IMG/VR virus record: IMGVR_UViG_648276659_000008
Reading direction: 5' to 3' (one strand)
From: a virus
Lineage: Duplodnaviria > Heunggongvirae > Uroviricota > Caudoviricetes
Length of the DNA stretch: 4,244 nt
Shown: one piece after another, positions 2,026-4,244 of the stretch
Layout: each line of letters begins with the position of its first letter
Numbering within the stretch: the first letter of the stretch is position 1
Made by a program: the position numbers and the translations under genes
Notes under the pieces: generated by a model
The model's database searches: none
What the model was told of the DNA's origin: nothing
What the model saw: the letters and a program-made list of their open reading frames with translations, nothing else

Positions 2026-2210
2026 TGTGCACATCCTTTTTGTATCGGACGTAAACGGGCCAGCATTGAAAGAATGCATATTTTATTTAATAACTCCCGT
2101 TCGTGTTTTCTCTTGTTAATGGCATCTTCAGTAAATACAGGGTTACTGATAGTGACACCAATTTCAAAACAACCTTCAGACGTATTAACGTTTGGTAATA
2201 ACGTTTCCAT
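2022..2210 (-). CDS. dicB: DicB cell-division inhibitor (62 aa)
   Basis: METLLPNVNTSEGCFEIGVTISNPVFTEDAINKRKHERELLNKICILSMLARLRPIQKGCAQ. Near-identical to my recollection of K-12 DicB over most of its length. GAGGA SD 7 nt upstream of ATG at 2210. Position (~180 nt downstream of dicF, immediately upstream of ydfD) matches the Qin dicB operon. Confidence 0.93.
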   Translation of the reverse strand: METLLPNVNTSEGCFEIGVTISNPVFTEDAINKRKHERELLNKICILSMLARLRPIQKGCAQ

Positions 2211-2227
2211 TATCGCGTCCTCAACAA

Positions 2228-2384
2228 TGAATTTTGTGATGCAGTGCCTGGTGCCTCCAGGTGACGTTAACCAGTTAACAATTAACGCCGGGTTAGTTGA
2301 TGCTCGTTACGCCCGTAAAATACCGCCTTACTGCTTTAACTGTTCCGCGTGCGCATAGCCGCATTCACCGCATCACAAAATTCA
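2228..2384 (-). repeat. 15-bp perfect inverted repeat pair bracketing the dicF-dicB spacer (arms 2228-2242 and 2370-2384)
   Basis: Plus strand 2228-2242 tgaattttgtgatgc is the exact reverse complement of 2370-2384 gcatcacaaaattca. In the minus-strand transcript one arm sits just 3' of the DicF terminator and the other 5 nt upstream of the dicB SD. Confidence 0.7.
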
Positions 2385-2388
2385 CTTT

Positions 2389-2446
2389 AAAAAGGGCGGC
2401 AGAGCAGTCACGGAGTAAAACTGATACCGCCAAATGTCACCAGAAA
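2389..2446 (-). ncRNA. dicF: DicF small regulatory RNA (53-nt body 2394-2446 plus U-tract to 2389)
   Basis: Minus-strand sequence UUUCUGGUGACAUUUGGCGGUAUCAGUUUUACUCCGUGACUGCUCUGCCGCCC followed by UUUUU matches the DicF sRNA as I recall it, with GGCGG...GCCGCC terminator-like pairing. Sits between ydfC-like and dicB as in Qin. Confidence 0.9.
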
Positions 2447-2781
2447 ATTGATAACAGAGGGCGTTGTAGCGGGGTTGTCACTTAAGCGTATGGTCAACCT
2501 GACAACCCGGTGCATTTTCTGGAGCAATGGAGGAAACCCCAGCCATACTTACCGCCGCGCCATTTCGCGGAGTGCCACAACCGGAAGCGCACGGTCGAAC
2601 TAAATTTAACGACACCGTACAGAGAGACCAATTTCGCCGTGCGCTTTCGCGTTATGCCCTGACTTTTCAGGGACATATCCTTTCAGTAAACTGTCAGTGC
2701 CGGATGCTCACCCGTGTCCGGCGCACGCACTCCACCTGACCAGTGGAGAACTCCTTAATTACCAACCCTCAGGAGGGTGAA

Positions 2782-3060
2782 ATGGATAAAAAGCAAATTG
2801 AGGCCCTGCAATCTATTATTGAAGAACAAGATGAAGCTATCAGGATTCTTTCATATCGCACTGATATGATACTAAATATGCTTTCTGCATTAACGGCTGC
2901 GCTTGGTGGTACAAAAACAAACGTATACCGCGAAGTTGTTATTCAACAGATAGATAAATTTGAAAAAACCATACCAGGTATTAATGCTCATCTTGCAGAA
3001 CAAGAGAAAGACCATGCTCTTATGGCAATTTCTTCAGTAGCTCTCCCGAAAGTTGAGTAG
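2782..3060 (+). CDS. Hypothetical acidic 92-aa protein, antisense to the operon; AT-rich moron-like gene
   Basis: ATG at 2782 preceded by perfect AGGAGG SD (2771-2776, 5-nt spacer). Open frame of 92 codons in AT-rich DNA (about 37% GC by manual count, against roughly 43-55% in sampled flanking segments). MDKKQIEALQSIIEEQDEAIRILSYRTDMILNMLSALTAALGG... is predicted helical with one short hydrophobic stretch. I recognise no family. Confidence 0.6.
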   Translation: MDKKQIEALQSIIEEQDEAIRILSYRTDMILNMLSALTAALGGTKTNVYREVVIQQIDKFEKTIPGINAHLAEQEKDHALMAISSVALPKVE

Positions 3061-3421
3061 TTTTAATTGTTGTTTTGAAATAATCACTGCTTTCACATTT
3101 GAGTGATTTCATGGCAATCCAAATGCGGGCCTCTGTGCCTGCATTTGGTTCCAGTTGCTGTAGACGTTTTGCGTCTTCCAAAAGTAAGGCGATAATGTGT
3201 TTCAGCTTCTCATCATTTGCTTGATTCTTGTTTTCAGGCGAATTCTGTCCGCCGAATAGGCGCTTCTCTTCATACAGACCTATAAAGGCACGACGCACGT
3301 TACCGGATATAGTATCGATGGTTTCCTTTTCTACAGTACTCAGGTCAAGAGTCGCCAGTTGAGAGCGAACCACATTCGCTGCCATTTCCTGGAATGGCAT
3401 TGGTAAATCTTTAAATTCCAT
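3020..3421 (-). CDS. Hypothetical 133-aa protein in operon orientation; its 3' end overlaps the convergent plus-strand gene by 41 bp
   Basis: ATG at 3421 with GAGG SD 7 nt upstream; 22 nt downstream of the ydfC-like stop. MEFKDLPMPFQEMAANVVRSQLATLDLSTVEKETIDTISGNVRRAF..., soluble and helical-looking, no family recognised. The last ~100 nt (3020-3120) are much more AT-rich than the rest of the gene. Confidence 0.7.
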   Translation of the reverse strand: MEFKDLPMPFQEMAANVVRSQLATLDLSTVEKETIDTISGNVRRAFIGLYEEKRLFGGQNSPENKNQANDEKLKHIIALLLEDAKRLQQLEPNAGTEARIWIAMKSLKCESSDYFKTTIKTTQLSGELLKKLP

Positions 3422-3443
3422 TATTAGCCTCGTTGGTTAGCTA

Positions 3444-3662
3444 TTAACGTGGGTATGTAACCATTCTGGCAATGCTTAATGCCGCTGCTTTTTCCAGCCT
3501 GGTGATATCCTGCTCCAGAGCGGACAGATTTTCAGCCTGCTTAGTCCTGGCTTCATTGGCCCATTTCAGATCCTGCACTGCATTAATTTTCTGGCGCATC
3601 CACTCATAAAGTTCATCATCGGTATAGTCTGGCGCGATGATGACGGGTTCTCGTTTCTGCAT
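3444..3662 (-). CDS. ydfC: YdfC-like prophage protein (72 aa)
   Basis: MQKREPVIIAPDYTDDELYEWMRQKINAVQDLKWANEARTKQAENLSALEQDITRLEKAAALSIARMVTYPR. GAGGA SD 8 nt upstream of ATG at 3662. Size and position (third gene of operon) match Qin ydfC; sequence identity is a vague recollection only. Confidence 0.8.
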   Translation of the reverse strand: MQKREPVIIAPDYTDDELYEWMRQKINAVQDLKWANEARTKQAENLSALEQDITRLEKAAALSIARMVTYPR

Positions 3663-4174: not shown

Positions 4175-4210
4175 AAAAAAACCCGCCAAAAAGGCGGGTT
4201 TTTTTTTTTT
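4175..4210. terminator. Bidirectional rho-independent terminator (A7 - CCCGCC aaaaa GGCGGG - T12)
   Basis: Perfect 6-bp GC stem with 5-nt loop, flanked by an A-run on one side and a T-run on the other, so it works as an intrinsic terminator on either strand. On the minus strand it would end transcription coming from a gene beyond the window end (expected immunity repressor, dicA-like). Confidence 0.8.
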
Positions 4211-4244
4211 GGGTGGGGGGGGGGGGGGGGGGGGGGGGGGGGGG
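4211..4244. other. Terminal poly-G homopolymer (gggt then G30); probable sequencing or assembly artefact at a contig end
   Basis: Uninterrupted G run at the extreme 3' end of the window directly after a T12 homopolymer, typical of two-colour chemistry poly-G read tails or a homopolymer-induced contig break. Confidence 0.6.

Follow-up and report, generated by a model that had tools for sequence, protein, structure and literature searches.

In Escherichia coli K-12, the dicBF operon is expressed as a single minus-strand transcript from dicBp without an internal sense promoter, and DicF is matured by RNase III, which yields a 190-nt species, and by RNase E, which yields the 53-nt small RNA (sRNA) DicF; the regulation of DicF and DicB is still under study (PMC10448788). 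In phage P22, sas, an antisense RNA transcribed from the opposite strand, controls the expression of sieB (PMC12197685, PMC7067206), and a position antisense to lytic genes is characteristic of accessory loci (PMC7067206). The Rac prophage of K-12 (locus L220 of our collection, 1,417,488-1,420,241) has the order racR-ydaG-ydaF-sieB-KilS sRNA-kilR-ydaE-racC-recE, in which the plus-strand gene sieB is convergent with ydaF and the two overlap. The DNA described here (the window) is a stretch of 4,244 nucleotides from a virus of the class Caudoviricetes (IMG/VR record IMGVR_UViG_648276659_000008), and represents the leftward early (dicBF) operon, read from the minus strand, of a lambdoid prophage of the Qin/Rac type. 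Within the untranslated spacer upstream of DicF there is a region of three inverted repeats, followed by a gene for a protein of 92 amino acids that points the opposite way, on the plus strand; the parallel layout of Rac implies that the slot of this gene, hereafter called the cargo gene, is the slot of sieB. The region in front of it is a conserved, portable leader for swappable prophage genes embedded antisense to an operon, and it carries no RNA or regulatory annotation. We somewhat favor the reading that positions 2687-2781 are the promoter-proximal 5' leader of an accessory, moron-type gene placed backwards in the leftward early operon.

The preliminary description of this region, made from its sequence, reported three perfect 6-bp inverted repeats. 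All three are present, at 2699-2704/2717-2722 (GCCGGA/TCCGGC), 2730-2735/2743-2748 (CTCCAC/GTGGAG) and 2765-2770/2773-2778 (ACCCTC/GAGGGT), but the first had been placed one base off, at 2700-2723 instead of 2699-2722; the third overlaps the Shine-Dalgarno (SD) sequence AGGAGG at 2771-2776, as that description had claimed. Dinucleotide shuffles contain a mean of 0.21 such repeats per 83 nt, with a probability of 0.011 for three or more, and only 1.4% of the real 83-nt segments of the 4.2-kb window hold three; a chance origin of the cluster is ruled out by the shuffles together with the conservation described below. The plus-strand RNA of 2690-2800 has a predicted folding energy of -39.0 kcal/mol with z = -3.5, against z = -0.9 for the minus strand, and in the longer context of 2650-2830 the first two hairpins retain pair probabilities of 0.94-1.0. 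Hairpin 1 (GCCGGAUGC-UCACCC-GUGUCCGGC; 2699-2722, plus strand) has 9 bp including two G-U pairs, with pair probabilities of 0.99-1.0, or 11 bp when upstream bases are included. Hairpin 2 (CUCCAC-CUGACCA-GUGGAG; 2730-2748, plus strand) has 6 bp, with pair probabilities of 0.94-0.98.

Both structure and conservation bear on the strand on which these hairpins act. The energy of hairpin 1 is -14.4 kcal/mol on the plus strand versus -10.1 kcal/mol on the minus strand, where it is weaker because G-U pairs turn into A-C mismatches, and it is stabler on the plus strand in all 44 variants (means of -12.8 versus -9.9 kcal/mol). When 32 distinct leaders were folded, z averaged -2.86 for the plus strand and -0.82 for the minus strand, with the better fold on the plus strand in 25 of them. 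Hairpin 1 varies by only 1-3 differences per 29 nt, compared with a synonymous divergence (dS) of 0.74-0.89 in the adjacent gene. In a second form of the leader (form B; the window has form A), the place of hairpin 2 is taken by an unrelated hairpin, CCACACG/CGUGUGG or ACCACACG/CGUGUUGGU, in which one A-U pair has been exchanged for U-A (L209b) and the loops vary while the stems are kept. The three-helix structure has a covariation score of 0.103, versus 0.044 in shuffled alignments, none of which (0 of 500) reaches the real score; its percentage of paired cells and its covariation both exceed those of all 500 shuffles and of all slid controls. For hairpin 2, column covariation is obscured because the MAFFT alignment sets the two forms one base out of register, and this hairpin was judged by eye and from single-sequence folds. 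The comparison leans towards action of hairpins 1 and 2 on the plus strand, which is less than proof.

The same leader stands in front of many unrelated genes. Two forms were recognized: form A consists of CUCCAC-N7-GUGGAG followed by AACUCCUUAAUUACCAACCCUCAGGAGGGUGAA-AUG, and form B of CCACACG-N6-CGUGUGG or a bulged variant followed by CUCCAUU..AACC..AACCUCAAUGGAGGAUAAA-AUG. Behind the two forms are 18 different proteins of 57-100 amino acids, which start at one common ATG position and fall into 12 families distinct by BLASTP, and the family of the 92-residue protein is present behind both. Loci were also collected through DicB alone, an anchor that leaves the sample of 87 unbiased with respect to the hairpins: 32 have the leader with a cargo gene, 23 are empty (hairpins 1 and 2, then ydfC), in eight hairpin 1 is followed by different sequence, 17 are without the hairpin 1 motif and seven are too short for a call. 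In the empty prophages, Qin of K-12 included, hairpins 1 and 2 lead straight into the 3' end of ydfC. The module is also found at loci without DicF; a scan of viral contigs for the hairpin 1 motif returned more than 120 matches, and in the exo-xis region of the Stx-type phage phi367 the leader precedes a plus-strand gene for a 73-residue protein. Of 5426 complete E. coli genomes, 3106 contain the 95-nt leader, which occupies 4279 places (1-5 per genome, median 1), 4270 of them chromosomal, and every locus examined is in a prophage or phage context; annotation at the matches in these genomes is limited to "none" or "hypothetical protein", with no RNA or regulatory feature.

The boundaries of homology fall at 2667/2672, 2698, 2727, 2745, 2767 and 2781/2784, a clustering that makes the stretch from ydfC to the DicF spacer a mosaic hot spot. 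In three loci of Salmonella (L095-L097), the DNA upstream of hairpin 1 is unrelated to the window and homology sets in precisely with the initial base of this hairpin, and in two loci (L020 and L105) a plus-strand gene for a 143-residue protein, with its own extended -10 promoter, has been inserted between the spacer and hairpin 1. The hairpins thus form a module that marks the edge of a cassette and may stand at its 5' side, inside it or at its 3' side. At the break at 2667, the slot also holds other plus-strand genes (L011, L014, L053, L081, L084, L088 and L020), which encode a 106-residue predicted membrane protein, a 66-residue protein and the 143-residue protein, each with a leader of its own; in two of these other leaders an SD-like sequence is again part of a hairpin, once as UCCUUCUU-N13-AAGAAGGA and once within an 11-bp stem that includes UAAGGAU.

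The SD sequence of the cargo gene (2771-2776, plus strand) ends 5 nt before the ATG at 2782-2784, and its GGAG is invariant in all 29 aligned leaders. The third inverted repeat, the palindrome ACCCUCAGGAGGGU at 2765-2778 (plus strand), combines a local anti-SD sequence, CCCUC (2766-2770), with the SD sequence and is specific to form A of the leader. As a 2-nt loop is impossible, its helix is limited to 5 bp with a 4-nt loop, at -6.1 kcal/mol and an ensemble occupancy of about 0.6. Its counterpart in form B is CCUC-AAUG-GAGG, and only CCC/GGG (3 bp) in the Salmonella locus L092; this absence in form B and reduction in Salmonella argue against a conserved operator or a strict translational switch. 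A second anti-SD sequence, CUCCU at 2751-2755 (plus strand), directly 3' of hairpin 2, can pair with AGGAG at 2771-2775. Of the five pairs in this helix, four are invariant and the fifth (2755/2771) is U-A in 17 leaders and A-U in 12, with none unpaired; the pairing is rare (about 0.01) in the ensemble of the window itself and is the minimum-free-energy pairing in several other leaders. Judged by these substitutions, the anti-SD:SD pairing that covaries is evidently the distal one and not the local palindrome, and the covariation of the SD sequence, together with the fixed spacing from hairpin 2 to SD and ATG, is sensible on the plus strand only. The probability that the SD sequence is unpaired is predicted to be 0.51-0.52 at 25, 30, 37 and 42 C, and behavior as an RNA thermometer was rejected for lack of any predicted temperature dependence over 25-42 C. 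Of the two roles offered for the palindrome in the preliminary description, protein binding is disfavored by its loss in form B and its shrinkage in Salmonella L092, and translational control by a hairpin survives in part: the SD sequence is partly masked, but the palindrome is neither the main nor a conserved feature. The emphasis on it was misplaced, and the antisense setting in the dicBF operon, the portability across unrelated genes and the occurrence without any plus-strand gene were overlooked; the reading as a structured plus-strand leader was right in outline, and the open reading frame (ORF) of the 92-residue protein is indeed coding.

The promoter candidate of the preliminary description, TTTTCA-N17-TAAACT, holds as the best one available for the plus strand, with its -10 element at a fixed distance from hairpin 1, but matches at only 8 of 12 positions. 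It consists of a -35-like TTTTCA at 2664-2669 (4 of 6 positions) and, 17 nt away, a -10-like TAAACT at 2687-2692, 6 nt upstream of hairpin 1, both on the plus strand. In 75 of the 81 distinct leaders, those with unrelated flanks included, a -10-like hexamer (TAAACT, TAAGCT, TAAAAT or TAAATT) precedes hairpin 1 by 6 nt, and this distance is fixed across at least five different upstream contexts; the -35-like hexamer is kept in dicF-spacer contexts, and with an 18-nt spacer in L092 and L107, and is absent in other contexts. In L097 the scan calls TTAATA-17-TAAAAT, which stops 7 nt short of the first G in hairpin 1, and L107 has the extended form TGgTAAACT. If transcription began at about G2699, the RNA would open directly with hairpin 1, which is proposed to be the 5'-terminal stem-loop of the plus-strand mRNA. 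In total RNA sequencing of K-12, antisense reads per million amount to 7.2 for ydfC, 0.34 for ydfB, 0.08 for dicF and 0.08 for dicB (PMC7373196 Table S1c). The hairpins of K-12 Qin are at the matching place between dicF and ydfC, and a signal over ydfC but hardly over dicF or dicB implies that the antisense transcript arises between dicF and ydfC, which supports plus-strand transcription indirectly. The scan detected no intrinsic terminator after the ORF of the 92-residue protein; the sole plus-strand candidate, about 400 nt downstream, is a weak terminator-like stem with a T-run at 3467-3494 (5 bp, at chance level in the scan), antisense within ydfC, and its role as the end of plus-strand transcripts is speculative. 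In empty loci such as K-12 Qin, the terminator-like site is about 140 nt downstream of hairpin 1.

The cargo gene (2782-3060, plus strand) encodes a hypothetical protein of phrog_18692 (8e-63), annotated as WP_000358769.1 in identical genomes by the Prokaryotic Genome Annotation Pipeline (PGAP), and is flanked by minus-strand ydfC and a minus-strand gene for a 133-residue protein on one side and by DicF and dicB on the other. Homologs of 71-82% identity occupy matching sites in lambdoid prophages of Salmonella, and comparison with them gives ratios of nonsynonymous to synonymous divergence (dN/dS) of 0.08-0.25 at a dS of 0.67-0.89; the Salmonella homologs were used because only 1-3 differences exist within E. 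coli, where dN/dS is uninformative. The ORF is a real, coding gene. The 92-residue protein had no match in Pfam or PADLOC, its only match being the PHROG family, which has no assigned function, and tblastn against a phage collection also found none; its AlphaFold2 model consists of three helices and is of low confidence (mean predicted local distance difference test score 71, predicted template modeling score 0.45). Ten cargo proteins, this one and nine others, gave nothing in Pfam and PADLOC except a borderline match: the 94-residue cargo of L131 (MAKFTVRIELRD...), behind form B, scores 21.2 bits to Pfam GhoS, for which the cut-off is 21 and which is described as the antitoxin endoribonuclease of a type V toxin-antitoxin system. 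The convergent gene for the 133-residue protein (3020-3421, minus strand; phrog_1363) is the early-operon partner of the cargo gene, with which its 3' end overlaps by 41 nt (3020-3060); an overlap of equal length in Salmonella points to a functional gene pair. In the partner, residues 1 to about 63 (MEFKDLP...) are common to the partners of many different cargo genes, and residues 69-131 (ELKHIIALLLEDAKRLQQLEPNAGTEARIWIA...) are a stand-alone protein of 71-75 residues in Salmonella; minus-strand partners in general share the N-terminal MEFKDLP domain but vary in their C-terminal parts, which are replaced along with the cargo.

The mechanism that we consider likeliest, and favor by a little, combines a weak constitutive promoter, mRNA-stabilizing 5' hairpins, a damped SD sequence and shut-off on induction. 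The weak sigma-70 promoter TTTTCA-N17-TAAACT would initiate a plus-strand RNA at about G2699, which would open with the very stable hairpin 1 followed by hairpin 2, and these 5'-terminal structures may shield the mRNA from 5'-end-dependent decay. The strong SD sequence would be partly masked by the alternative 5-bp pairings with CCCUC (2766-2770) and CUCCU (2751-2755), so that translation of the 92-residue protein would be damped and not blocked. Since no strong terminator follows, the transcript would run on antisense into the convergent gene for the 133-residue protein. Upon prophage induction, strong leftward transcription would silence the promoter by occlusion, and its RNA would hybridize with the cargo mRNA into a double strand, turning the cargo off, in a manner that would parallel sieB and its antisense RNA sas in P22. 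Cargo could be exchanged by homologous recombination at two sites, the module and the conserved 5' portion of the convergent gene. Of this picture, the structures, their conservation and portability, the variety of cargo genes and the coding status of the ORF are demonstrated, whereas the precise start site, mRNA stabilization, translational damping and shut-off on induction are inferred. A related proposal, about which we are doubtful, is that the module marks a cassette-exchange slot in the early-left operon of Rac/Qin-type and some Stx prophages and provides one common leader (hairpin 1, hairpin 2 and the covarying anti-SD sequence), behind which a dozen or more unrelated small genes are traded as units with the C-terminal module of the overlapping convergent protein, the paired products being antagonists: the plus-strand gene would supply a lysogen exclusion or host-manipulation factor and the minus-strand protein an early escape factor, with mutual antisense transcription as a switch, and in empty loci such as K-12 Qin the leader alone would produce an unannotated antisense RNA, about 140 nt long, to limit leaky expression of the toxic dicF-dicB.

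Several observations weigh against a 5' leader that acts on the plus-strand mRNA. The promoter candidate is below the scan threshold of 9/12, and the promoter would be outside the conserved unit, since homology begins at hairpin 1 in some contexts; the K-12 start-site tables examined had no entry in the interval, and no usable table was found. Hairpins 1 and 2 occur without a plus-strand ORF in K-12 Qin and the other empty loci (23 of the 87 anchored on DicB), and in P13374-like Stx phages hairpin 1 occurs alone, in P13374 between two minus-strand genes. In L020 and L105 the -10 segment has been replaced and hairpins 1 and 2 are 46 nt past the stop codon of the upstream plus-strand gene, and in L095 and L096 they are between two plus-strand genes, placements that show that the hairpins can be 3' or intercistronic instead of 5'-terminal. 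The loop of hairpin 1 is more conserved than a purely structural role requires, independent covariation events are few because the leaders fall into few forms, and one-sided stem substitutions that keep a G-U pair number about five for the plus strand versus about three for the minus strand in our own alignment count, which singles out neither strand clearly. The masking of AGGAGG is only partial, its mean unpaired probability in the window being about 0.5.

The operon in which the module lies was established from the identity and order of its genes. DicF (2445-2394, minus strand) is a full-length Rfam match of 77 bits and DicB (2210-2022, minus strand) is confirmed by Pfam; positions 2200-3450 are 100% identical to chromosomes of E. 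coli VR50, 118UI, BEN2908 and others, in which PGAP annotates ydfA, ydfB, ydfC, a 133-residue hypothetical protein, dicB, ydfD and an exonuclease on the minus strand, and related phage records have the gene order of the window adjoining a CI/Cro-type immunity region. It is from DicF, DicB, this gene order and the CI/Cro neighborhood that the window is assigned to a leftward early operon. Transfer of K-12 coordinates by alignment places the 5' end of the 190-nt DicF precursor at about 2587, within an inverted repeat (2582-2594/2637-2649; 13 nt, 92% complementary, 42 nt apart) that is probably the RNase III substrate of the precursor; the region of the three repeats (2699-2781), 50-120 nt away, was rejected as the DicF RNase III site on the grounds of this mapped end. 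Just upstream of DicF on the minus-strand RNA is a perfect 9-bp inverted repeat, GGGTTGTCA/TGACAACCC, at 2472-2480/2500-2508, and the dicF-dicB spacer (2178-2396, minus strand) matches STnc100, a Salmonella sRNA family, with 31 bits, below its gathering score of 47. A supplementary table of a 3'-end mapping study (PMC7815308) has a sense-strand entry inside ydfC at K-12 U00096.3 1,648,855 (+), which we took to be a putative Rho-dependent 3' end; if so, the dicBF transcript would terminate early, before DicF.

Other features of the region and of the window's end were also considered. A permissive cmscan of the whole window (E up to 1) gave no Rfam match in 2446-2790. No intrinsic terminator was found in 2690-2790 on either strand, the flanks having no T-run, and the hairpins were rejected as a terminator because no terminator-like site exists there. 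A plus-strand ORF for 70 amino acids at 2527-2739 was rejected because a deletion of about 70 nt (2570-2639) in some loci is not a multiple of three. A minus-strand ORF runs through hairpins 2 and 1 at 2764-2694, with a TTG start and 23 codons, or an ATG start and 20 codons in form B, and a common TGA; its variants differ only nonsynonymously, which lends no support to coding. At 4175-4244 there is a strong bidirectional terminator hairpin, AAAAAAACCCGCC-AAAAA-GGCGGGTTTTTTT, which differs from VR50 on both arms with the stem kept, and the window ends from 4213 in a poly-G run, absent in VR50, that is almost certainly a sequencing or assembly artifact at the contig end.

The main rival to a plus-strand leader, in our judgment improbable, is that hairpins 1 and 2 serve the minus-strand operon RNA as a stability element resembling repetitive extragenic palindromic (REP) sequences, blocking 3'-to-5' exonucleases and protecting the mRNA of ydfABC or of the cargo partner after RNase III or RNase E has cut the spacer to free DicF, with the cargo merely inserted alongside. 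Both hairpins still fold on that strand (hairpin 1 at -10.1 kcal/mol), the base of the hairpin 1 stem resembles the ends of Y-type REP units, as a lead only, the RNase III site at about 2587 is just downstream of the hairpins in the minus-strand sense, and the hairpins persist where there is no plus-strand ORF, in K-12 and many other loci, or where hairpin 1 lies between minus-strand genes, as in P13374. The region is transcribed on that strand in K-12, where loss of RNase III destabilizes ydfA RNA (PMC10448788). The same strand, however, folds no better than shuffled sequences (mean z of -0.82, and -0.9 in the window), hairpin 1 loses three base pairs to A-C mismatches there in 44 of 44 variants, and the module is not a canonical REP; it moves with plus-strand cargo into loci that have no DicF, and it keeps a fixed spacing from hairpin 2 to SD and ATG with the segment adjoining hairpin 2 covarying with the SD sequence. 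Quite unlikely, in turn, is a block that is nothing but a DNA-level recombination joint for cassette exchange, whose hairpins have no RNA function. Breakpoints do lie at the edges of the block and inside it, cargo genes are flanked by the block on one side and by ydfC or the 5' part of the MEFKDLP gene on the other, and hairpin 1, loop included, is far more conserved than the synonymous sites of the neighboring gene; but a pure anchor needs no hairpin shape, and this explanation does not account for two different hairpin 2 sequences at one position, an anti-SD sequence that covaries with the SD sequence, or a -10-like hexamer at fixed spacing in unrelated flanks. Any conserved functional sequence anchors recombination as a side effect, which makes a joint compatible with a 5' leader and not a replacement for it.

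Very unlikely is the proposal that at loci without cargo, and possibly also in the window, the module forms the beginning (5' part) of a gene for a small antisense RNA aimed at the 3' end of ydfC or of the partner, or one that hinders leaky leftward transcription into the toxic dicF-dicB, the cargo genes being secondary insertions. The antisense reads of K-12 are confined to ydfC, empty loci are common (23 of 87) and have a plus-strand terminator-like stem and T-run about 140 nt past hairpin 1, and the loop of hairpin 2 opens with Y-U-N-R in form A variants, a motif typical of antisense recognition loops. That terminator-like site is weak and at chance level, however, no RNA of about 140 nt is reported or annotated in K-12, where the read counts are low, and a strong SD sequence and ATG stand at a fixed spacing in 12 ORF families, which shows that the leader serves translation when cargo is present. 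Least probable of all, and hardly credible, is that the 14-bp palindrome ACCCTCAGGAGGGT serves as the operator of a DNA-binding protein dimer, or as a strict translational switch or RNA thermometer of the 92-residue protein's gene. The palindrome is perfect and overlaps the SD sequence, and SD-containing hairpins recur before unrelated plus-strand genes in the slot; against this, it is absent from form B and reduced to CCC/GGG in the Salmonella homolog of the cargo gene, it yields only 5 bp at -6.1 kcal/mol, accessibility of the SD sequence is about 0.5 and unchanged over 25-42 C, and chance alone would supply one short-looped 6-bp repeat at a rate of about 0.2 per 83 nt.

If the module is indeed the 5' leader of accessory genes, it would be a common expression platform for small prophage proteins in the sieB slot of Rac and a sequence handle for finding them, and the proteins of the slot would be good candidates for lysogen exclusion, defense or host control. 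It is present in over half of complete E. coli genomes, yet unannotated as an RNA or a regulator. It would also place a convergent promoter beside the toxic DicF and DicB, which could explain the antisense RNA over ydfC in K-12, and it would be a concrete case of a conserved gene-exchange joint in lambdoid phages.

Comparison with known systems shows partial likeness to several. The module shares the untranslated spacer between ydfC and dicF with the processing signals of the DicF precursor, but occurs also where DicF is absent. Like REP sequences and bacterial interspersed mosaic elements (BIMEs), hairpin 1 is a GC-rich imperfect palindrome between genes, which starts GCCGGATG and ends TCCGGC, a resemblance that could extend to a role in mRNA stability. 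REP units are about 35 nt long with a terminal CTAC and occur in hundreds of extragenic copies, often clustered; hairpin 1 is 24 nt long with the flank GCAC instead of CTAC, has no match within three mismatches to the REP consensus, for which membership was rejected, and differs also in occurring at 1-5 places per genome, usually as a single copy per locus, and only in prophage or phage contexts among the loci examined. The leader resembles SD-sequestering leaders and thermometers (ROSE, fourU, lambda cIII) in that an anti-SD sequence pairs with the SD sequence, here with two alternative partners, but unlike them it has a short, half-occupied pairing, no predicted temperature response and a local palindrome that is not conserved. 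Hairpins at the 5' terminus shield mRNAs from 5'-end-dependent attack by RppH and RNase E, and the leader is like an ompA-type 5' untranslated region in having a very stable predicted hairpin at or near the putative 5' end, a second hairpin and then the ribosome-binding site; unlike it, the leader has no sequence relationship to that region, and its hairpins are sometimes after or between plus-strand genes. Classical morons have their own promoter and terminator and are individually distinct. The cargo gene is like morons in being a small gene opposite to the flanking genes of the lytic operon with a putative promoter of its own, but in this case a single conserved leader is shared by at least 12 ORF families that are unrelated to each other, and there is no clear terminator. 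With sieB the likeness is one of position: the leader of Rac sieB contains neither hairpin 1 nor hairpin 2, and the 92-residue and other cargo proteins have no similarity to SieB in the Pfam search, but sieB, like the cargo, is a backward accessory gene in a leftward early operon, between ydfA-like genes (ydaF and ydaG) and a pair comprising an sRNA and an FtsZ inhibitor. KilS and KilR of Rac thus parallel DicF and DicB of Qin, each pair consisting of an sRNA followed by an inhibitor of division through the FtsZ ring, with the slot for a backward gene just upstream.

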